23,516 bases of DNA from a virus (lineage: Duplodnaviria; Heunggongvirae; Uroviricota; Caudoviricetes): the IMG/VR virus record IMGVR_UViG_2585427772_000010. One strand, written 5' to 3'. A model generated the notes under the pieces. It saw only the letters and a list, made by a program, of their open reading frames with translations. It was not told where the DNA came from and searched no databases. The translations under genes were made by a program, and so were the position numbers. This document shows, piece after piece, positions 6,108-22,613 of this stretch; the stretch's first letter is position 1, and every line of letters starts with the position of its first letter.

Positions 6108-6482
6108 ATGGGGAAGCAAGGCAAAGGCAAAGGCAACAAAAATCAGGTTAAGGTTACGTGGGCTCAGGCGTGGCGGGATGTAATGATAAGAGCCATGTCT
6201 AATGGTCAGTTGATACCTATTACCATCAGTATTATTTTAATGATTGCTGCATGGAGGTTACCAAAAACAGACTTGTCCAATTTAGCCTTCTCTATTGTTG
6301 ATGGCTTTAAGGAGCATTCCTTGGTTGGTTGGGCTATCTCGGTAATAGTGGGTTTGGCTTGGTCTGCACATGCGCGAATCATGAGGCGCTGTTTTAGTTC
6401 CGAGGCACAGAGAATCGGTAACGAGAAAACAAAGTATCAACAAAGACAGACCACTCAAGCCTTGGGTACAAGTGATAAATAG
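6108..6482 (+). CDS. Small membrane protein with two predicted TM helices (cargo gene 1)
   Basis: 124-aa ORF; lysine-rich N-terminus, hydrophobic segments LIPITISIILMIAAW and LVGWAISVIVGLAWSA; AT-rich; start uncertain (alternative ATGs at 6183 and 6195). Confidence 0.5.
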   Translation: MGKQGKGKGNKNQVKVTWAQAWRDVMIRAMSNGQLIPITISIILMIAAWRLPKTDLSNLAFSIVDGFKEHSLVGWAISVIVGLAWSAHARIMRRCFSSEAQRIGNEKTKYQQRQTTQALGTSDK

Positions 6483-6502
6483 TTGTTTATTTAGGAGTTA
6501 TT

Positions 6503-7060
6503 ATGCTGACAGTGCTGTTTTATGTGCTGTTGGGTTTAGGCGCAGCACACTTCATTTACGAGCGAATCATTTTGCCGTCCATCCGACTTCATTATAGAAA
6601 CCAATTGTTTGCGCTTCGTGATGTCGCTAGGAGGAAAATCATTGATGGAGGTTCCGATACTTCCATGCAAGCGGCAACACTTGTGCATGACTCATTGAAT
6701 AACGCTATCAATAGATTGCATTTACTCACGTTGCCAAACAAATTTCGTGCTCAAAAGCGTATGGCAGAAAACCATGCAATAAGGCAGAAAATTCGGCGTG
6801 AGATAGATGTTTTCAAACGCTGTGATGATAGAGAAGTTGTTGATGTACTGTTTAAATCCGGTCGGATACTTGAAAATGTACTGTTATTCAATAGCTTAAT
6901 GTTATTGCTTTACATGTTTCCATTTGTCCTTGCTGTATGGTTCTGTGTTAGGGTCATAAAGACAGCAAGTAGTTTAGTACAGTGGGTCAAAGGAAGAGAT
7001 TTAGAGGAAGCTATAATGCTGCTTCCTGATACTCAGGTTGAAAAGGTTGTATACGCATAA
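6503..7060 (+). CDS. Membrane protein with N- and C-terminal hydrophobic helices (cargo gene 2)
   Basis: 185-aa ORF; AGGAG 6 nt upstream of the ATG; 20-nt gap from gene 1 (operon); hydrophobic N-terminus (LTVLFYVLLGLGAAHFIY) and C-proximal helix (LLFNSLMLLLYMFPFVLAVWFCV); followed by a terminator. Confidence 0.65.
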   Translation: MLTVLFYVLLGLGAAHFIYERIILPSIRLHYRNQLFALRDVARRKIIDGGSDTSMQAATLVHDSLNNAINRLHLLTLPNKFRAQKRMAENHAIRQKIRREIDVFKRCDDREVVDVLFKSGRILENVLLFNSLMLLLYMFPFVLAVWFCVRVIKTASSLVQWVKGRDLEEAIMLLPDTQVEKVVYA

Positions 7061-7089
7061 AAATCACCCCTTAGGGGGTGATTTTTTTA
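7061..7089 (+). terminator. Rho-independent terminator
   Basis: ATCACCCC-TTAG-GGGGTGAT hairpin followed by a 7-T run immediately after the 6503-7060 stop. Confidence 0.7.
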
Positions 7090-7299
7090 CATGACTTTTG
7101 ATTAGCTGACATTGTAAATCCGCATGTATCAGATGCATTGTTTTGCATGTGGAAATGGGTGTTTTCACTGCCAGCTATCGCTACATGTAGCAAAAACACG
7201 GGCTTAATAAGAAATCATTCTGCCATAAGGCATAACTTCCCCGCGTGCTCAGGTATTGACGTCATAGATATGGATCTTTTTTAATCAAGGTATGGTATT

Positions 7300-8247
7300 A
7301 TGAAGATATTTATTAGTTGGTCAGGTCAGGACAGCCTGGAGATAGCAAAAGTATTACGGGATTGGATACCGAATGTTATTCAAGTAGCTGAGCCGTACGT
7401 ATCAGCGGAAGATATTGATAAAGGCACTCGCTGGGCGACTGATATATCAAAGGAACTTGATGACTCTTCTTATGGGATTATTTGCCTTACAAAAAATAAT
7501 ATTAATGCACCGTGGATAAATTTTGAGGCGGGGGCTTTAGGTAAAAAGGTTGATAAGAGCCGGGTTAGTCCTTTCTTGTTTAAAATTAAACCATCTGAGA
7601 TAACAGGCCCAATATTACAATTCCAGTATACTCGTTCGGATGATAAGAACGATATTTTGAAGTTGATGTTGTCAATAAATAATCAAGCAGGATTTTTGAC
7701 TGAAGAACGCTTAACTAAAGCTTTCGAGCAATGGTGGCCAAGTTTAGAGCGTGAGTTAGATAACATTCAAGATATTAACCCTGTAGATAAAGATTCCACT
7801 AAAAAAACAAAAGGTGATTCGACTTCTGAGATACAAAATCTTTCCAAAATTGTTGAAAGTTTGCTGGATATTAGCCGAACAAATCACCAATTATTGCGTG
7901 ATCCAGCATCATTATTGCCAGAAGAATATGTTAGCAAAATAATAAACAGGGAAGGGCGTAAAGAAACTGTTTTAAAAATTGTAGCTTCTGATTTATTATC
8001 CATGCATCATTCACTAATTCGTGTAAAAAGAAGATTTATTCGTCGTGGTATTGATGAAACATCTAGGAGCGAGTTAATTGAATCATTAAATAAAATGATA
8101 ATGGATTGTTCTAGAGTAATCGCTCACTTAGATAATTATTGTGGGGCTTCATCAAACAATATGTTCAATAGTGCGCTTAGATTGCGGACCAGAAATTTAA
8201 TTGACATGATGGATGAGGAGGATGCAGAACGGGATGAAATGGAATAA
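7300..8247 (+). CDS. TIR-like domain protein with uncharacterised helical C-terminal half (cargo gene 3)
   Basis: 315-aa ORF; N-terminal ~130 aa carries the bacterial TIR-like pattern (KIFISWSGQD ... GIICLTKNN ... PWINFEAG) with a glutamate at the position of the catalytic Glu of TIR NADases; C-terminal ~170 aa is charged/helical and unrecognised. The domain call is from motif reading only. Confidence 0.6.
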   Translation: MKIFISWSGQDSLEIAKVLRDWIPNVIQVAEPYVSAEDIDKGTRWATDISKELDDSSYGIICLTKNNINAPWINFEAGALGKKVDKSRVSPFLFKIKPSEITGPILQFQYTRSDDKNDILKLMLSINNQAGFLTEERLTKAFEQWWPSLERELDNIQDINPVDKDSTKKTKGDSTSEIQNLSKIVESLLDISRTNHQLLRDPASLLPEEYVSKIINREGRKETVLKIVASDLLSMHHSLIRVKRRFIRRGIDETSRSELIESLNKMIMDCSRVIAHLDNYCGASSNNMFNSALRLRTRNLIDMMDEEDAERDEME

Positions 8248-8791
8248 TCAATTTTGACTAATCATAAATAATTTTGCATATATAAACTTATAATGCCGCA
8301 GCCGCTATTTTTCAGCGGCTGTATATCGCTTATAATGGGTATGTTATTTTTATTTTGATAAAATCATTAAAATTGTCGATGTTATATGAATGCACATGTA
8401 TTATTAATGTTAGAAGATTATGCCTGCTTACGGCTATTGTGCTGAATTCAACTATGAACGCATCAGTATTAAAATCGTTCCATGAAATGTTCTTCGTCTA
8501 CAGCAGATGATGGGCAACGAAAAAATGACGCTGAGTGAGTTGGTCGGGGAGAATTGTTAGAGGTATTTATGGAGTGGTTTAATAATATCGGTCAATCCTG
8601 AGTTGCAGCATCACATAGACGATAGGGAATCTCTCCAGTCGTTCTGGAATGGCAGCGTTGAACAACAAGCACAGCGAGGCGTTAGATGCCCATCAGATTG
8701 ACACAGAGGGTTTATGAATCGCTGGGATTTACTTAGTTTGAAAAATAATATATTTATATGTTTTTGTATTGTGTTTGTTAAGGAGTTTGGA

Positions 8792-8998
8792 TTGAAAAGA
8801 AAACTGATTTGTGTTATGGCTTTTTGGGGGGCGTTGCTGGCTGGTTGTAATGAGAGTAATAAAAAAGAAGTTGAGGGTTGTATTGAAAGAGGTGTCCAAT
8901 ATTTTATAGAGATTGGTTCTTACCCTAAATTAAGTGATGGGCGTGATGCTGTAAAAGTTGCTACTGAACGTTGTAATAGAACAATAACGGCTTTCTGA
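8792..8998 (+). CDS. Small predicted lipoprotein (cargo gene 4)
   Basis: Track ORF 8714-8998; preferred start is the in-frame TTG at 8792, preceded by AAGGAG (8780-8785), giving a classical lipoprotein signal peptide (KRK, hydrophobic core, lipobox LLAG-C); about 49-aa mature protein with three further Cys. Confidence 0.5.
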   Translation: MKRKLICVMAFWGALLAGCNESNKKEVEGCIERGVQYFIEIGSYPKLSDGRDAVKVATERCNRTITAF

Positions 8999-9000
8999 TA

Positions 9001-9918
9001 ATGGATTATACGAGCTATATAATAGGACAGCTTCAGGTTGAGGATATTATTGATGCAATTAAAGGCGTTAATAATACTAATGTCATAAAAGATTATGTGC
9101 TGCCTGTAGTATTACCAATTATATCTTCTGTGCTGAGTTACTTTATTGCAACTAGGTTGTTTTATCGGCAGGAGGACCTTAAAGCACAAAGAAGAAAGGT
9201 AAGCGTTGTAAATAAATGTATTTATGACTACTTTTCTGCAATGACAACGTTGTTGCAAATTAAAGGGAATTATTATGGTGGGGTAAGTATAAGTGAAAAT
9301 CCTATCGAGAGGGCTTTAGCTTTTCCTGTTGTGGTTTTTTCTGGTGCTCCTCTATCATCAGATTTAAGTGAGTTGGCCTGTATATTGAGTCAAAAGGGAG
9401 TAGGGAATAATAGAGAGCCAGCAAAGACTACTAACTGGGGGGATGCTTTTGCTGTTAGTGATATAGCAAGAAGGTTTAACAGCCTATTGGCTGCATTAAA
9501 TGTTAGGAATGATTTTGATGACACCTATAGAGGAATGATTATTGAATCAACAGGTTCACCTTTGCCTACGATGCGTTTTAAAAATGATGATATTGTTAAT
9601 GCTATAGGTAGTAATAAGGCAGCTTATTACATTGATATTACTGAGCAAATAATGATTATGATAGATGTTTTGTTGCTTGATATTAATCTGTTGCTCAAAG
9701 AGTTGCCATTGTATGCTGAATCGCTGTTTGACAAAAGAGTAATGCAAGAAGATTCAGGGATTCTTAAATTCAATGATTTGCACGAACGTTTTCCTCTACT
9801 TATGAAACCTGTAACGCCACCTTCGATTAAACTCATGTCTGATTATTTGGGGTACAGTGAAGATGAGATCTTACGACGCTATCCATACCCGTTCTTTAAT
9901 ATGCATGATTGTGAATGA
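9001..9918 (+). CDS. Uncharacterised 305-aa protein with one N-proximal TM helix (cargo gene 5)
   Basis: ATG 2 nt after the lipoprotein stop (coupled); hydrophobic segment VLPVVLPIISSVLSYFIATRLF; AT-rich; no family recognised. Confidence 0.7.
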   Translation: MDYTSYIIGQLQVEDIIDAIKGVNNTNVIKDYVLPVVLPIISSVLSYFIATRLFYRQEDLKAQRRKVSVVNKCIYDYFSAMTTLLQIKGNYYGGVSISENPIERALAFPVVVFSGAPLSSDLSELACILSQKGVGNNREPAKTTNWGDAFAVSDIARRFNSLLAALNVRNDFDDTYRGMIIESTGSPLPTMRFKNDDIVNAIGSNKAAYYIDITEQIMIMIDVLLLDINLLLKELPLYAESLFDKRVMQEDSGILKFNDLHERFPLLMKPVTPPSIKLMSDYLGYSEDEILRRYPYPFFNMHDCE

Positions 9919-10021: not shown

Positions 10022-10040
10022 GGGCGAGGCGGGGAAAGCA
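10022..10040. other. cos site (19-nt cohesive-end sequence of P2-type phages)
   Basis: Exact GGCGAGGCGGGGAAAGCAC, which I recall as the P2/P4 cohesive end, in the expected position between the old/tin locus and Q. Confidence 0.6.
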
Positions 10041-10171
10041 CTGCGCGCTGGCGGGGGTGATGATTGTCTGAGCGCGTCGTGATGGCGTTTAGATTGTGCG
10101 CCGGGGCGTTGGTGTGTCTGCGGGGTGTTTTGTACAGTGGCGAGCGTGTGAGGGCGTGATGACGGGGGTGT

Positions 10172-11233: not shown

Positions 11234-11795
11234 CAGTAAAACTCCAGAATGGTGGATGTCAGCGGGGTGCTGATACCGGCGGTGAGTGGCTCATTTAACA
11301 GGGCGTGCATGGTCGCCCAGGCGAGGTCGGCGTGGCTGGCTTCCTCGCTACGGCTGGCCTCATAGGTGGCGCTGCGTCCGCTGCTGGTCATGGTCTTGCG
11401 GATAGCCATGAACGAGCTGGTGATGTCGGTGGCGCTGCGTCCGCTGCTGGTCATGGTCTTGCGGATAGCCATGAACGAGCTGGTGATGTCGGTGGCGCTG
11501 ACGTCATATTCCAGACAGCCACGGCGGATGACGTCTTTTGCCTTGAGCACCATTGCGGTTTTCATTTCCGGCGTGTAGCGGATATCGCGTGCGGCGGGAT
11601 AGAACGAGCGCACGAGCTGGAACACGCCGACACCGAGGCCGGTGGCATCAATTCCGATGTATTCGACGTTGTATTTTTCGGTGAGTTTGCGGATGGATTC
11701 CGCCTGAGTGGCAAAGTCCATGCCTTTCCACTGGTGACGCTCAAGTATTCTGAATTTACCTCCGGCCACCACCGGCGGTGCCAGCACCACGCATC
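11233..11795 (-). pseudogene. P: Terminase large subunit P, C-terminal fragment only, carrying an in-frame 63-bp tandem duplication
   Basis: Only ~185 codons remain of a gene that is ~590 codons in P2; the reading frame runs into the K fragment on the other strand; the upstream promoter and N-terminal part are absent. Confidence 0.8.
11368..11493. repeat. Perfect 63-bp tandem duplication (2 copies) inside the P remnant
   Basis: 11368-11430 and 11431-11493 are identical; the 10-mer GGTGGCGCTG precedes each copy and a partial third GGCGCTG follows; encodes a duplicated 21-aa segment (SATDITSSFMAIRKTMTSSGR). Confidence 0.9.
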
Positions 11796-11797
11796 CG

Positions 11798-12250
11798 GCG
11801 CTGGCCGTGTCCGAAGGGACGGCGAATCATCCGCTGACGAAAAACCGGGGCTATGACGTGATAGTCACCGGACTGGACGGAAAGCCGGAAATTTTCACCG
11901 ACTACAGTGACCACCCGTTCGCACATGGTCGACCGGCGAAGGTGTTTAACCGTCGCGGTGAAAAATCCACGGCCTCCGGTCGCTATCAGCAGCTTTACCT
12001 GTTCTGGCCGCATTACCGCAAACAGCTTGCCCTGCCGGATTTCAGTCCGTTGTCACAGGACAGGCTCGCCATTCAGTTGATCCGCGAACGCGGTGCACTG
12101 GATGACATCCGGGCGGGACGCATTGAGCGCGCCATTTCACGCTGTCGCAATATCTGGGCGTCCCTGCCGGGTGCCGGTTACGGTCAGCGTGAGCATCCAC
12201 TGGAAAAACTGGTCACCGTCTGGCGTACCGCCGGCGGCGTACCGGCTTAA
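11798..12250 (+). pseudogene. K: Endolysin K (lambda R-like lytic transglycosylase), 5'-truncated
   Basis: Translation (SEGTANHPLTKNRGYDVIV ... IWASLPGAGYGQ) aligns with lambda R from about its residue 17 onward; the catalytic-Glu motif SEGT is retained but the N-terminus, RBS and upstream holin gene are missing. Confidence 0.75.
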
Positions 12251-12264
12251 ACGGAGTAAACACC

Positions 12265-12690
12265 ATGAAGAAATTATCCCTTTCACTGATGCTGAATGTG
12301 CCGCTGGCGCTGATGCTGGCACTGTCCCTGATTTACCCGCAGAGCGTGGCCGTCAGTTTTGTCGCCGCCTGGGCGATTCTGGCGACGGTTATCTGTGTGG
12401 TTGCCGGTGGTGTCGGCGTGTATGCCACTGAGTATGTGCTGGAACGCTACGGGCGGGAGCTGCCGCCGGAATCGCTGGCCGTGAAGATTGTCACGTCGCT
12501 GTTTTTGCAGCCGGTGCCGTGGCGCAGACGGGCAGTAGCTCTGGTGGTGATGGTGGCGACGTTTATCTCGCTGGTCGCTGCCGGGTGGATTTTTACCGCG
12601 CTGATTTATCTTGTGGCGTCGCTGTTTTTCCGGCTGATACGTAAAGCCTGCCGTCAGCGTTTTGAGGGGCGGGAACCATGTCAAAGCTGA
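12265..12690 (+). CDS. lysA: LysA (membrane protein of the P2 lysis cassette)
   Basis: 141-aa strongly hydrophobic multi-TM protein directly after K, as in P2. Confidence 0.8.
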   Translation: MKKLSLSLMLNVPLALMLALSLIYPQSVAVSFVAAWAILATVICVVAGGVGVYATEYVLERYGRELPPESLAVKIVTSLFLQPVPWRRRAVALVVMVATFISLVAAGWIFTALIYLVASLFFRLIRKACRQRFEGREPCQS

Positions 12691-14123: not shown

Positions 14124-14194
14124 TTTTATCCAGACAGAGGCTGATGCGCAATTAAACATTGAGCGGCCATGCTGGTCGCTCAATGTTTAGAGGT

Positions 14195-14980
14195 TTATGA
14201 GTGATTTTTATTTGATGCTTTGTATTCTAAAACCTTCTTATTGGCGTAAAAGAATTTTGTATATGACAGGAATATAACCAGACCTGAAGTGAAATAGACG
14301 AGGGATAGTATTAATAATGCTTTTTTGCGACTGTTATTATCTTTAATCTCCAGGCTTAACCATTCGGAGTCCTCCTCGTTTAGCTGTAAGAGCTTATTGC
14401 AGGCGATTTCAGGAAGTGTGTCTTTTATAAATACGTTTTGCAGTCTCTTGCAATCGGCAAGGCTATAAGTTTTATTAAATTCAACTGCTTTATTTTTGAA
14501 GGATAAAAGAACTTTGTCACTATAAACATAGTACATCATGTTTTTATATGGTATGCCTATGGCATCCCTTACTATAACGGATTGTTCGTTGTGTATGTAA
14601 CATGCGAGGAGAATGTAAAAAATACTGGCCAGAATTACAATTATTGTTTTAATTATGTGTGGTGGTTTTGTTATGTCACCCCAGATGCGAGTAAGGAAAA
14701 AATACGATGTTTTTAGTTTTCCATCAATCAGTCCCTGCTGTATCATTCTCACATTTTCAATGCCTGATACATTGATTCCGTTAATTATTTTAAATAGTTG
14801 AATGTCGCGCCACTCGCGGTCAAGTCTTTTTAATTTTTTGTCTGAATATCCAAAATTGAAATAATGTGCAATAAGCCTCATAAGGTTACTTTTACCAAAG
14901 CTAAAAAATGCTAATACTGCAAAGCTACAAAGGAAAAAAACGATTAGCCCCCACACATTAGTCACATTATAGCTGACCAT
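14195..14980 (-). CDS. AT-rich multi-pass membrane protein at the orf30 position, antisense to the late genes
   Basis: 261-aa ORF; AAGGAGAG 5 nt upstream of the ATG on the minus strand; about three hydrophobic helices; composition visibly more AT-rich than flanking S and V. Confidence 0.7.
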   Translation of the reverse strand: MVSYNVTNVWGLIVFFLCSFAVLAFFSFGKSNLMRLIAHYFNFGYSDKKLKRLDREWRDIQLFKIINGINVSGIENVRMIQQGLIDGKLKTSYFFLTRIWGDITKPPHIIKTIIVILASIFYILLACYIHNEQSVIVRDAIGIPYKNMMYYVYSDKVLLSFKNKAVEFNKTYSLADCKRLQNVFIKDTLPEIACNKLLQLNEEDSEWLSLEIKDNNSRKKALLILSLVYFTSGLVIFLSYTKFFYANKKVLEYKASNKNHS

Positions 14981-14989
14981 TACGCTCTC

Positions 14990-15060
14990 CTTGAATGTTG
15001 TCTGGTAGTTCTACAAATGAATCCAGATAGCATAACTTTTATATATTGTGCAATCTCACA
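14990..15060 (+). promoter_or_regulatory. Candidate late promoter upstream of V (P_V)
   Basis: Imperfect dyad TTGTCTGGTAGTTCTACAA about 50-60 bp upstream of V and an AT-rich -10-like TATATAT; P2 has an Ogr-dependent late promoter at this position. Spacing does not exactly match the TGT-N12-ACA consensus as I recall it. Confidence 0.3.
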
Positions 15061-15063
15061 TGC

Positions 15064-17489: not shown

Positions 17490-19535
17490 ATGAGCATAAA
17501 ATTCAGAACCGTTATCACCACTGCCGGTGCAGCAAAGCTGGCAGCGGCAACCGCGCCGGGAGGGCGGAAGGTCAACATTACCACGATGGCCGTCGGGGAT
17601 GGCGGTGGTAAATTGCCTGTCCCGGATGCCGGACAGACCGGGCTTATCCATGAAGTCTGGCGACATGCGCTGAACAAAATCAGCCAGGACAAACGAAACA
17701 GTAATTATATTATCGCCGAGCTGGTTATTCCGCCGGAGGTGGGCGGTTTCTGGATGCGTGAGCTTGGCCTGTACGATGATGCGGGAACATTAATTGCCGT
17801 GGCGAACATGGCCGAAAGTTATAAGCCAGCTCTTGCCGAAGGCTCAGGGCGTTCGCAGACCTGTCGCATGGTCATCATCGTCAGCAGTGTGGCCTCAGTG
17901 GAGCTGACCATTGACACCACAACGGTGATGGCGACTCAGGATTACGTTGATGACAAAATTGCAGAGCATGAACAGTCACGACGTCACCAGGACGCCTCGC
18001 TGACCGCAAAAGGTTTTACTCAGTTAAGCAATGCGACCAACAGCACGTCTGAAACACTGGCCGCAACGCCGAAAGCGGTTAAGGCCGCATATGACCTTGC
18101 TAACGGGAAATATACCGCACAGGACGCTACCACAGCGCGAAAAGGTCTTGTCCAGCTAAGTAGTGCGACCAACAGCATATCTGAAACGCTCGCCGCAACA
18201 CCAAAAGCCGTTAAGACGGTAATGGATGAAACGAACAAGAAAGCGCCATTAAACAGCCCTGCACTGACCGGAACGCCAACGACGCCAACTGCGCGACAGG
18301 GAACGAATAATACTCAGATCGCAAACACGGCTTTCGTTATGGCCGCGATTGCCGCCCTTGTAGACTCGTCGCCTGACGCACTGAATACGCTGAACGAGCT
18401 GGCGGCGGCGCTGGGCAATGACCCGAATTTTGCTACCACCATGACTAATGCGCTTGCGGGTAAGCAACCGAAAGATGCCACTTTGACGGCGCTGGCGGGG
18501 CTTGCTACTGCGGCAGACAGGTTTCCGTATTTTACGGGGAATGATGTTGCCAGCCTGGCGACCCTGACAAAAGTCGGGCGGGATATTCTGGCTAAATCGA
18601 CCGTTGCCGCTGTTATCGAATATCTCGGTTTACAGGAAACGGTAAACCGAGCCGGGAACGCCGTGCAAAAAAATGGCGATACTTTGTCCGGCGGGCTTAC
18701 TTTTGAAAACGACTCAATCCTTGCCTGGATTCGAAATACTGACTGGGCGAAGATTGGATTTAAAAATGATGCCGATGGTGACACTGATTCATATATGTGG
18801 TTTGAAACAGGTGACAACGGCAATGAATATTTCAAATGGAGAAGTCGCCAGAGCACCACAACAAAAGACCTGATGAATCTTAAATGGGATGCTCTGTATG
18901 TTCTTGTTAAAGCCCTTTTCAGCAGTGAAGTAAAAATATCTACAGTCAATGCACTGAGGATATTTAATTCATCTTTTGGGGCTATTTTTCGCCGTTCTGA
19001 AGAAAACCTGTATATCATTCCTACACGAGAAAATGAGGGTGAAAATGGAGATATTGGGCCATTAAGGCCATTCGGCATCAACTTAAGAACAGGAGTTGTG
19101 TCTGTTGGTAATGGTGCCAGGATTGATGGCGGGCTGGCACTTGGCACGAATAACGCGTTGGGTGGGAACTCTATTGTTCTTGGTGATAACGACACCGGAT
19201 TTAAACAAAATGGCGATGGTAATCTGGATGTTTATGCTAATAACGTCCATGTTATGCGCTTTGTTTCCGGAAGCATTCAAAGTAATAAGACCATAAATAT
19301 TACGGGGCGTGTTAATCCCTCGGATTACGGTAACTTTGATTCCCGCTATGTGAGAGATATCAGACTTGGCACACGTGTTGTCCAGACCATGCAGAAAGGG
19401 GTGATGTATGAGAAAGCAGGGCACGTAATTACCGGGCTTGGTATTGTCGGTGAAGTCGATGGTGATGACCCCGCAGTATTCAGGCCAATACAAAAATACA
19501 TCAATGGCACATGGTATAACGTCGCACAGGTGTAA
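17490..19535 (+). CDS. H: Tail fibre protein H
   Basis: 681-aa ORF with conserved N-terminal baseplate-attachment region, internal fibre repeats (SNATNSTSETLAATPKAVKA / SSATNSISETLAATPKAVKT) and a distinct C-terminal receptor-binding portion. Confidence 0.9.
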   Translation: MSIKFRTVITTAGAAKLAAATAPGGRKVNITTMAVGDGGGKLPVPDAGQTGLIHEVWRHALNKISQDKRNSNYIIAELVIPPEVGGFWMRELGLYDDAGTLIAVANMAESYKPALAEGSGRSQTCRMVIIVSSVASVELTIDTTTVMATQDYVDDKIAEHEQSRRHQDASLTAKGFTQLSNATNSTSETLAATPKAVKAAYDLANGKYTAQDATTARKGLVQLSSATNSISETLAATPKAVKTVMDETNKKAPLNSPALTGTPTTPTARQGTNNTQIANTAFVMAAIAALVDSSPDALNTLNELAAALGNDPNFATTMTNALAGKQPKDATLTALAGLATAADRFPYFTGNDVASLATLTKVGRDILAKSTVAAVIEYLGLQETVNRAGNAVQKNGDTLSGGLTFENDSILAWIRNTDWAKIGFKNDADGDTDSYMWFETGDNGNEYFKWRSRQSTTTKDLMNLKWDALYVLVKALFSSEVKISTVNALRIFNSSFGAIFRRSEENLYIIPTRENEGENGDIGPLRPFGINLRTGVVSVGNGARIDGGLALGTNNALGGNSIVLGDNDTGFKQNGDGNLDVYANNVHVMRFVSGSIQSNKTINITGRVNPSDYGNFDSRYVRDIRLGTRVVQTMQKGVMYEKAGHVITGLGIVGEVDGDDPAVFRPIQKYINGTWYNVAQV

Positions 19536-20287: not shown

Positions 20288-20881
20288 ATGTTTACTAAGC
20301 GACGATTAAAAAATATTAACTGGGAGGCAAGTTCAGTGATTCTTGCTATGGTTCTCTTTGTTGGAAATATATTTTATACAAATCATCGTGATGATATAAG
20401 CATGGAGGCTGAGAGGGACAGTATCAGAACAATGTTTGCATATGAAATCGCTAATAACCATCGCGCTCTCACTTTTCTTGATAAAACGAGACATATTGGC
20501 TTTGACGAAAATTCGGAGCATTTTGTTGGCGAGCCTTTTGCCATTAATGTCAAATCATTAGGGGGACCTCGCTTACAGATTGCATTAAACCAGACTGATA
20601 AAGTGTTTAAATCCTACTTCGGCGAATTAAGTAAGCTTGATAAAGAGGATGTTACTCTTCTTATGGACTATTACCATGAGCAAAGCATCCTGCTGGAGCG
20701 TGTAAAATCTACGTTACAGAAGATGAAAAGTGGTAATGATATTAAAGTTGATATTGATGGTTGCTTATTAGAAGAACACTTCATGAATGAGCTTAATCTT
20801 TCTAATATTTTGCTTAAACGCTATAGCTATTTATTATCACAACACGCTAAGGAACATAAAACAAAAGATTTACATAATTGA
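20288..20881 (+). CDS. AT-rich membrane-anchored protein at the Z/fun position
   Basis: 197-aa ORF; AAGGTG 5 nt upstream of the ATG; single N-terminal TM helix (SSVILAMVLFVGNIFY); flanked by AT-rich intergenic DNA between G and the FI remnant. Confidence 0.65.
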   Translation: MFTKRRLKNINWEASSVILAMVLFVGNIFYTNHRDDISMEAERDSIRTMFAYEIANNHRALTFLDKTRHIGFDENSEHFVGEPFAINVKSLGGPRLQIALNQTDKVFKSYFGELSKLDKEDVTLLMDYYHEQSILLERVKSTLQKMKSGNDIKVDIDGCLLEEHFMNELNLSNILLKRYSYLLSQHAKEHKTKDLHN

Positions 20882-21090
20882 TAATCTGCTAATGGTTATT
20901 CATGGGGTAACTATGTTTTATATGTAATCCAGCCCAGATGAATTATTGATTCTGGATAATAACCGCAGAGCGGCATATACCCTGACAGGCAAATGTCCGC
21001 TTCTTGCTCAAAGCAGACTGTCAGATTTGATAACTTTTGGGCTATGTAAACTGTCAGTCGGAAAATGAGTGTGTACAAATCAGGACAGGC

Positions 21091-21127
21091 GGGGGGAATT
21101 GCCCCCTTTTTTTTTTTTTTTTTTTTT
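21091..21127 (+). terminator. Strong rho-independent terminator with a 21-T tract
   Basis: GGGGG-AATTG-CCCCC hairpin (21092-21106) followed by 21 consecutive T (21107-21127). Confidence 0.7.
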
Positions 21128-21212
21128 CATCCACTGACCAGCCAGGTCAAATAGCGTCTCATGTACTACCCAACGGAAAATAGTTGCACCCATTAACCAC
21201 GGAGTTAAACGG
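21128..21212 (+). promoter_or_regulatory. Candidate late promoter upstream of FI (P_F)
   Basis: Dyad TGACCAGCCAGGTCA about 65-75 bp upstream of the FI ATG; GGAG 9 nt before the ATG; P2 has a late promoter here. Confidence 0.3.
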
Positions 21213-21326
21213 ATGAGTGACTATCATCACGGCGTGCAGGTGCTGGAGATTAACGACGGCACCCGCGTCATTTCCACCGTATCCACAGCCATTGTCGGCA
21301 TGGTCTGCACGGCTAGCCTCCCGTAA
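21213..21326 (+). pseudogene. FI: Tail sheath FI, 5' stub (37 codons then stop)
   Basis: [35 protein letters not shown] matches the start of the P2 sheath protein as I recall it, then leaves frame and hits TAA at 21324-21326. Confidence 0.7.
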
Positions 21327-22077
21327 CAGGCTGGAAGCCAGTGTCGCTCCGTCACTGGCCGGAATTAAAATCCCGCACATCGACCAGTCGCAGGAGTCCG
21401 ATGCGAAATTCCTGACCCGTCTTGCTGAACGCAACGGCGGTGAGGTGTCGGTAAAAATGGGAAAACTGCTGTTTCTCAAAGCGGGGCAGGGGGGGACGGT
21501 CAGCGGTAAAAAAATCCCGCAGATTACCATCACCCGCAGCGACGGCGACCGTCATCATTTTGCGATTGCTGACCGTGGAGCCTACACAGGCGTAACGGCA
21601 AAGTGGTTACACACCAAAGACCCGAAGCCGCAAAAGCAGAAGGTAAAACTGAAACGCAAAAAGAAAGAGAAACACCTGCGCGCACTGGAGCACCCGAAAG
21701 CGAAACCGGTCACGCAGAAGAAAGAGCCAAAAGTACCGGAAGCGCGCGAAGGTGAATACATGGCCGGTGAGGCTGACAACGTTTTTGCCCTGACCACGGT
21801 ATATGCCACGAAAGCACAGGCCATGCGCGCCGCTCAGGCGAAGTGGGATAAACTGCAACGGGGTGTTGCGGAGTTCTCCATCAGCCTGGCTACTGGTCGG
21901 GCAGATATTTACACGGAAACGCCGGTCAGAGTGTCAGGCTTTAAGCGCGTCATAGACGAGCAGGACTGGACAATCACTAAGGTGACACATTTTCTGAATA
22001 ATAGCGGCTTCACGACGTCCCTGGAGCTTGAGGTCAGGCTTTCTGATGTGGAGTACGAAACAGAAGATGATGAGTGA
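21318..22077 (+). pseudogene. D: Tail protein D, 3' fragment (about 250 codons) fused to the FI stub
   Basis: Frame of track ORF 21217-22077 encodes a lysine-rich linker and C-terminal region ending ...LELEVRLSDVEYETEDDE, directly upstream of ogr as in P2; no native start or N-terminal part. Confidence 0.75.
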
Positions 22078-22158
22078 TGTAATTTATTTATCTGTTTGTT
22101 TTATAAGGATAAATTAACTAAAATGGCACCATCAACAAAACCGGAAGAGGTGCTCGCG

Positions 22159-22377
22159 ATGTTTCATTGTCCTTTATGCCAGCATGCCGCACATGCGCGT
22201 ACAAGCCGCTATATCACTGACACGACAAAAGAGCGTTATCACCAGTGTCAGAACGTGAATTGCAGCGCCACGTTCATCACTTATGAGTCGGTACAGCGAT
22301 ACATCGTGAAGCCGGGAGAAGTCCATGCCGTAAGGCCGCACCCGTTGCCGTCAGGACAGCAAATTATGTGGATGTAA
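22159..22377 (+). CDS. ogr: Late gene activator Ogr (zinc-finger)
   Basis: Start at internal ATG 22159 (MFHCPLCQHAAHARTSRY...); 72 aa with CxxC...CxxxxC zinc-binding pattern; last phage gene as in P2. Confidence 0.85.
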   Translation: MFHCPLCQHAAHARTSRYITDTTKERYHQCQNVNCSATFITYESVQRYIVKPGEVHAVRPHPLPSGQQIMWM

Positions 22378-22387
22378 TCACAAAAAT

Positions 22388-22415
22388 AGCCCCTCAGTTG
22401 AGGGGCTTTATTTAT
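22388..22415 (+). terminator. Terminator-like hairpin after ogr
   Basis: AGCCCCTC-AGTT-GAGGGGCT followed by TTTATTTAT. Confidence 0.55.
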
Positions 22416-22505
22416 GGTCGATGTGGACGCTATGTGGACAGCGTTTGATATAAATCCATTTATATCATCAGGTTAGGTGCTTTTTTGTGACACCATCCCT
22501 GTCTT

Positions 22506-22532
22506 CCCCCACATGATGTGGGGGTTTTTTTT
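22506..22532 (+). terminator. Rho-independent terminator hairpin in the phage-host junction region
   Basis: CCCCCACA-TGA-TGTGGGGG followed by 8 T. Confidence 0.5.
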
Positions 22533-22613
22533 ATCCTCAATTTGCCTGCTGCTTAATGCATTGCAGATGATTTGCTTCCGTTATACTACCGTCAGTTGAT
22601 AGCGGGAGTATTT

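Follow-up and report, generated by a model that had tools for sequence, protein, structure and literature searches.

The 'grounded' prophage is a published concept (PMC6379469), and P2-like prophages that are defective but have conserved defence genes have been described before (PMC13586616). Complete members of the family are also at hand, and three of them served as references for the present analysis: the annotated phage P2 (NC_001895), phage P2_AC1 and the intact prophage located between cpxP and fieF in E. coli D7. The DNA studied here (the window, 23,516 nt at its full length) contains a P2-family prophage that has the same gene order as these three, lies at the same site as the D7 prophage and shares 97-99.8% nucleotide identity with the references over the common parts; across D'-ogr-att, where D' denotes the remnant of gene D, it is 99.8% identical to P2_AC1. 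While the references encode the full P-O-N-M-L-X-Y-K and FI-FII-E-T-U-D regions, the prophage of the window lacks 5,319 bp of the first and 5,438 bp of the second. The latter scar, at which the beginning of the tail sheath gene FI meets the distal part of the baseplate hub gene D, is the main subject here, and the features around it are collected in Table 1.

Table 1. Positions (numbered from the first letter of the window) of the two deletion junctions, the gene remnants and the regulatory and terminal sites of the prophage.
Feature	Position	Strand	Remarks
FI stub	21213..21326	+	FI proper up to codon 35; Leu-Pro-TAA from out-of-frame D sequence
D' remnant (baseplate hub, Phage_GPD)	21316..22077	+	codons 135-387 of gpD plus stop
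FI-D deletion junction	21314..21317	.	TAGC common to FI nt 102-105 and D nt 401-404; 5,438 bp missing
P-K deletion junction	11800..11803	.	GCTG; 5,319 bp missing
pF late-promoter activator (Ogr) site equivalent	21119..21145	+	mapped from NC_001895 17555-17583; upstream half overwritten by T21
F-operon transcription start equivalent	21187..21189	+	inferred by homology to NC_001895 17626-17628
ogr promoter (-35/-10 equivalents)	22096..22125	+	mapped from NC_001895; kept
ogr, late-gene activator	22159..22377	+	intact; 72/72 aa identical to D7 OgrK
Rho-independent terminator of ogr and the F operon	22386..22409	+	mapped from NC_001895
attR core, right prophage end	22489..22535	.	47 nt; same sequence as the attL copy that follows cpxP in D7
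cos cohesive-end 19-mer	10023..10041	+	exact match to P2 cosL/cosR; both flanks conserved

On the left side of the scar, an open reading frame of 37 codons on the plus strand (ATG at 21213, TAA at 21324-21326) represents the start of the P2-family sheath gene FI. It is situated downstream of pF and of the G/cargo region, in a stretch whose upstream part is collinear with P2, P2_AC1 and D7, and its start codon is preceded by a GGAG motif at a distance of 7-10 nt. Nucleotides 1-101 of FI are 97-99% identical to the references, and codons 1-35 agree in every encoded residue (35/35) with the intact FI from D7 (tblastn E=3.5e-17). Past codon 35 the frame reads CTC CCG TAA, i.e., Leu-Pro-stop, from out-of-frame D sequence. 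The initial annotation, which had described an FI gene opening normally with ribosome binding site and ATG, leaving its frame after about 35 residues and terminating at 21324-21326, was accurate on these points. A full-length sheath protein is a polymerising protein of ~396 aa, of which the stub retains codons 1-35 followed by the two foreign residues, and searches with Pfam and PADLOC returned no match for it. It is best regarded as a pseudogene fragment that is homologous to gpFI but would not function as a member of the family. Because pF and the FI ribosome binding site have been kept, transcription from pF and translation of the stub probably continue once Ogr is made. A programmed frameshift or a functional FI-D fusion was considered and rejected: the stub ends two codons past the junction, and the difference between the two frames is set by the geometry of the deletion.

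To the right of the break, identity to D begins at 21314 (D nt 401) and continues unbroken to the D stop codon at 22075-22077, as seen in a base-by-base alignment. This segment encodes residues 135-387 of gpD (253 of 387 aa) in frame +1 relative to FI, with 95.8% identity to D7 gpD over the aligned part. It had initially been described as a different frame that starts from about 21318 and encodes the C-terminal region of D up to ogr; the D region is real and ogr is indeed the next gene (from 22159), and only the beginning of the D sequence has to be refined, to 21314-21318. The Pfam profile Phage_GPD (PF05954) matches D' with 69.8 bits, well above its gathering cut-off of 30.1, although the match is incomplete, covering profile positions 107-304 of 305 with the first 106 missing. 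D' is not a complete domain with a start of its own: codons 1-134 of D are absent, the 5' end has neither start codon nor ribosome binding site, and the in-frame starts found further upstream (GTG at 21217, TTG at 21292) lie in FI-derived sequence, again with no ribosome binding site. The 286-aa open reading frame that extends from GTG 21217 to 22077 reflects no more than the +1 frame of the FI stub being open and continuing into D'. D' is best regarded as a probably inert pseudogene fragment with no credible start at its 5' end. As regards annotation, the calls 'major tail sheath domain protein' (37 aa) and 'late control D protein' (261/286 aa) in GenBank and other gene sets refer to two halves of one scar and not to genes.

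The junction itself could be defined to within a few nucleotides. In the base-by-base comparison with P2_AC1, identity to FI extends through position 21313 (FI nt 101), or through 21317 if the (T)AGC overlap is counted, and the four bases of the overlap fit both genes save for one C/T difference on the FI side, where all three references have CAGC and some P2-like phages have TAGC. An ancestor with a perfect TAGC in FI may have existed, which is plausible because an FI allele with GCT at codon 34 is present in intact P2-like contigs; alternatively, the microhomology may comprise only 3 nt, as the references have CAGC and not TAGC. The missing DNA amounts to exactly 5,438 bp, the same size whether P2, P2_AC1 or D7 is taken for comparison, and comprises FI nt 106-1191, FII, E/E', T, U and D nt 1-400 (a deletion from FI nt 102-106 to D nt 400-404). 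Both flanks are collinear with the three intact references around a single breakpoint. In the intact relative, the breakpoints are not connected by any direct repeat of at least 11 nt, and neither an IS element nor a long repeat nor an att site was found at the junction; Rfam gave no match over the whole window. When random junctions were simulated in the D7 prophage, an overlap of at least 4 nt arose in 1.8% of cases (0.018) and one of at least 3 nt in 5.4% (0.054). Collinear flanks, a single breakpoint and an overlap of 3-4 nt with no long repeat, IS or att site are what characterizes a deletion at microhomology. The alignment to complete P2-family tail modules, proposed earlier as a way to define the breakpoints, thus places them at FI nt 102-106 and D nt 400-404, bears out the earlier statement that sheath, tube, E/E', T, U and the 5' part of D are missing, and leaves no intact FI, FII, T or D anywhere in this prophage.

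A companion scar is present in the left half of the prophage, where the C-terminal third of the terminase gene P (minus strand) adjoins codon 17 of the endolysin gene K. What has been lost at this place is the 5' part of P, the promoters pP/pO along with the activator site, the genes O, N, M, L, X and Y, and codons 1-16 of K. The junction string was found exactly in 12 of the loci examined, and in the index of the protein collection K' products occupy 27-60 blocks; the P-K scar which the initial annotation had invoked is a real loss of 5,319 bp. Apart from the genes O, N, M, L, X, Y, FII, E, T and U, which are absent, and P, K, FI and D, which are truncated, the gene content is that of a P2-like prophage: int, C, cox, B, orf80-83, A, five cargo ORFs, Q, lysA/B/C, R, S, V, W, J, I, G and ogr are all full length and 94-100% identical at the amino acid level to their D7 counterparts, with int identical throughout (326/326). 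The fibre gene H is mosaic: it is 97% identical to P2_AC1 at the DNA level, and its C-terminal part (18915-19328) diverges from D7 and P2 but matches P2_AC1. A further ORF of 261 aa on the minus strand (14195-14980), with no match in Pfam or PADLOC, corresponds to P2 orf30 and is found here and in P2 but not in D7, within a mosaic region at 14126-15063. The earlier picture of a prophage that keeps immunity, replication, baseplate, fibres and cargo but has no capsid, sheath or tube is consistent with this inventory, all of the former being full length and H mosaic.

Integrated at its att site and devoid of essential morphogenesis genes, the element qualifies as a defective prophage. From its gene content it follows that it should have no capsid, scaffold, small terminase, sheath, tube, tape measure, hub N-terminus or holin and no intact large terminase or endolysin, and that after the P-K deletion no late promoter would be left for Q or for K'-lysABC-R-S. 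Production of virions or lysis of the host by the element alone would consequently be impossible, although a further P2-like prophage with tail genes may exist elsewhere in the genome. That there are only two lesions and no other pseudogenes argues for both being evolutionarily recent.

Upstream of the FI-D break, the positions of the pF activator site, the start of transcription and the ribosome binding site of FI have been kept. A new wiring from pF to ogr was considered and rejected as not new, the P2 annotation already having the F operon and ogr on one terminator. With cos and its surroundings conserved, the remnant, whose length of ~22.65 kb is inferred from the attL offset in D7, would in principle have kept its cis packaging site. 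Three cargo genes located after gene A (6108-8247) are recognized by PADLOC as 2TM-TIR, 1TM-TIR and TIR-TM (E 1e-58 to 1e-118), and their proteins are 100% identical to those in the intact D7 prophage; they constitute a candidate TIR-type anti-phage system in the 'old/tin' hotspot of P2. Neither Pfam nor PADLOC gave a match for three further cargo ORFs, namely a 94/305-aa pair at 8714-9918 and a 197-aa ORF at 20288-20881. The latter has a hydrophobic N-terminal segment, occupies the G-FI (Z/fun) hotspot and also occurs in P2_AC1 and, judged by position and identical length, in strain S3.

Several local irregularities of the window deserve mention. Upstream of pF and FI (21088-21127), at the site of a terminator hairpin with a T-rich tail, the window reads GGCGGGGGGAATTGCCCCC followed by T21, while most sibling assemblies, P2_AC1 and D7 have GGCGGGCGAATTGCCCGC(A/T/C)TTTTCTTTATCTGTTGTTTCA. 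Each of the changes copies the preceding base, and L004 (for the labels of carrier assemblies see below) has another version with T22 and L014 a partial one. The T21 run is almost certainly an Illumina or assembly artefact, by which the upstream half of the pF activator site would be overwritten in this window only. Its interpretation as an odd terminator or a mutated Ogr site was rejected, the run being absent from most sibling assemblies. The single-base differences to the non-Tanzanian carriers L011 and L016 are nearly all of the kind T-to-G directly after a G run (at 7533, 10847 and 10852, and, common to the sibling L013, at 9175, 10055, 10834 and 21494, the last amounting to V93G in the D' ORF). 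Such T-to-G changes are a known Illumina error pattern in GG context, and SNPs of this type in the window should be treated as unreliable. Within the P' fragment (11365-11505) an in-frame tandem repeat of 63 bp is present in two copies. It occurs once in L004, L011, L013 and L015, five times in L014 and six times in L012, the last two being colonies of one stool sample, yet differing in copy number; D7 and P2 are without the duplication. This variation is either a real duplication beyond the reach of 100-bp reads or an artefact of the assembler.

Related strains were found to carry the same two scars together: a 32-mer spanning the FI-D junction and a 33-mer spanning the P-K junction both recur, without a mismatch, in seven further assemblies that stem from four or more projects (JORG, JONF, JOQZ, JORF, GCA_052502265.1, GCA_043395605.1 and GCA_907163395.1, labelled L003/L012, L004, L013, L014, L011, L015 and L016), including third-party TPA assemblies (prefixes DBKANU and DAYUWT) and one ENA-submitted assembly. 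Two Tanzanian children, from whom samples were taken on one day, yielded the isolates behind four of the seven (ST827, phylogroup B2, O4:H40), and the other three come from unrelated submissions. NCBI has identical copies of the FI stub and of the D' protein (261 aa) for E. coli 6-175-07_S3_C1/C2 and relatives, and the scar-specific 286-aa ORF that spans the junction exists on 15 further contigs (NCBI, Logan, ENA). Wherever carrier contigs reach the flanks, the prophage is in the same place with the same offset, on contigs of nearly equal size (153-157 kb) with the junction mid-contig, and L011 and L016 do not differ at all over 9.6 kb. Carriers were found only via exact-protein look-ups. Neither junction was present in one piece in any of 5,426 complete E. 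coli genomes, and no exact match to either was obtained in GTDB species representatives, JGI metagenome contigs or IMG/VR. No intermediate with a single scar was seen among the carriers, four short contigs (L017-L020) ending before FI and not being scorable. The distribution suggests that both scars are a vertically inherited marker of one clone, and the two exact junction strings are handy markers for this lineage related to ST827/B2, which besides the two children has appeared in several later assemblies. In one carrier of the P-K junction, the ENA metagenome scaffold ERZ28566128 (L019), a further deletion of ~123 bp was observed in lysA/lysB (equivalent to 12507-12610 of the window) between imperfect 19-nt direct repeats (17/19), in a sequence whose replication region has different gene calls; it may reflect continuing decay or an artefact of metagenome assembly.

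Taken as a whole, we consider it very probable that the FI-D scar results from a microhomology-mediated deletion of 5,438 bp in an integrated P2-like prophage, which would have left inert fragments in a grounded element that is inherited vertically. A P2-like prophage (Peduovirus) is integrated between cpxP and fieF in E. coli, and according to this scenario illegitimate recombination between FI nt 102-105 and D nt 401-404 at (T)AGC, inside the F (tail) operon, would have taken place in the integrated prophage by replication slippage or by microhomology-guided end joining. FI and D were joined out of frame, leaving the 37-codon sheath stub and the last 253 codons of D with no proper translation start. 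A second deletion of the same type (at GCTG, 5,319 bp) removed head, packaging and lysis genes together with pP/pO. The outcome would be a 'grounded' prophage, transmitted vertically in one E. coli lineage, in which C, int/cox, B, A, cos, ogr, baseplate, fibres and anti-phage cargo are intact. Locking the prophage in may have brought some selective benefit.

One could envisage instead that the doubly deleted element of ~22.65 kb is a helper-dependent, satellite-like derivative of P2, which a co-infecting P2-like helper would excise, replicate and package via cos, so that the TIR-type defence cargo would spread; if true, the element would be an incipient satellite that descends directly from the lineage of its own helper. 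P2-size heads can hold P4 dimers of ~23 kb, and int, cox, C, B, A, ogr, the 19-nt cos core with both flanks and the attR core are all intact in an element whose cargo includes the 2TM-TIR/1TM-TIR/TIR-TM set. Nevertheless, we consider this possibility very unlikely, as the location of the element at the same place in all carriers that reach the flanks and the identity of L011 and L016 are the pattern of a clone and not of horizontal spread, and as both junctions are missing from IMG/VR, the JGI metagenome contigs and the GTDB representatives. Nor is there any sign of streamlining, about 9 kb of useless portal, lysis, baseplate and fibre genes having been kept. No satellite-specific genes were seen in the element, and it does not classify as a phage satellite (P4-like or otherwise helper-dependent), since besides the cargo every sizeable ORF was a homologue of a P2 core gene in a general homology comparison, with the helper's structural and core genes Q, R, S, V, W, J, I, H and G among those kept.

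It is highly unlikely, in our view, that D' has been kept (with ogr) for a function, be it an internally initiated C-terminal domain of gpD or a regulatory role, and that deletions ending in D were selected for this reason. Remnants consisting of the 3' part of D plus ogr do recur, in prophage PR-X of K-12 and, as a different FI-D' fusion, in strain ZH177, but their breakpoints in D all differ (at nt 401 in the window and near nt 135 in ZH177, with the final 219 nt left in K-12 and D full length in S3 and E4), and such a scatter is expected from the position next to attR and ogr in the absence of selection on D'. An internal in-frame ATG at 21457 does have a GAGG-like motif upstream, yet any product of D' would lack the part of the Phage_GPD domain that corresponds to the first 106 profile positions, and the element encodes no partner tail proteins. 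That the junction is an assembly artefact, i.e., a collapse or chimera by which 5.4 kb really present were dropped, is barely conceivable: the window does derive from 100-bp HiSeq reads assembled with MaSuRCA and does contain local errors (the homopolymerised terminator, T-to-G after G runs, variable copies of the 63-bp repeat), but none of the known ones touches the FI-D junction, the 32-mer and the junction-spanning ORF recur in independent TPA, ENA and other assemblies with the junction mid-contig, and, as the breakpoints share 3-4 nt and no repeat of at least 11 nt links them, an assembler would have had no sequence to collapse on. The assembly collapse that the initial annotation had named as a way in which its reading could fail is thereby all but excluded.

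Compared with known cases, the FI-to-D loss seen in the window has several counterparts. In E. coli S3, ZH177 and E4, independent deletions extend from within FI to D, or to just before it, and have likewise removed the 3' part of the sheath gene, tube, E/E', T and U while the G-FI cargo and ogr were kept. Unlike the window prophage, these elements are other prophages at the trhP/yegR site with breakpoints of their own: FI is annotated as a fragment of 765, 381 and 573 nt, respectively, and D is complete in S3 and E4 and 1,029 nt long in ZH177. Of the 2,160 complete genomes that matched in this search, 3 have such an FI-to-D join, none of them with the junction of the window, suggesting that loss of the FI-to-D block is recurrent but rare. 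The cryptic prophage PR-X of K-12 is another remnant of the P2 family in which ogr and a C-terminal fragment of D persist by the right attachment site. At 629 bp it is limited to ogrK and the pseudogene yegZ, a piece of D comprising its final 219 nt; it occupies the trhP/yegR site and has lost all that lay further left, whereas in the window 253 codons of D are fused to an FI stub in an otherwise intact prophage of ~22.65 kb at cpxP/fieF. PR-X would accordingly represent the extreme and far more eroded end state of such D-ogr remnants.

Seen against this background, the FI-D scar appears to be an instance of ordinary, lineage-specific prophage decay and is of little weight beyond annotation, although the two clean deletions with overlaps of 3-4 nt add a small data point on the loss of prophage modules, and a cleanly and recently grounded prophage is a possible natural substrate for work on helper mobilisation or on the domestication of defence cargo. 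With the grounded and defective prophages described before (PMC6379469; PMC13586616) it shares the loss of mobility and morphogenesis functions along with a defence cargo that is nearly identical to that of intact elements, and it differs from them in having only two clean deletions and no other pseudogenes.
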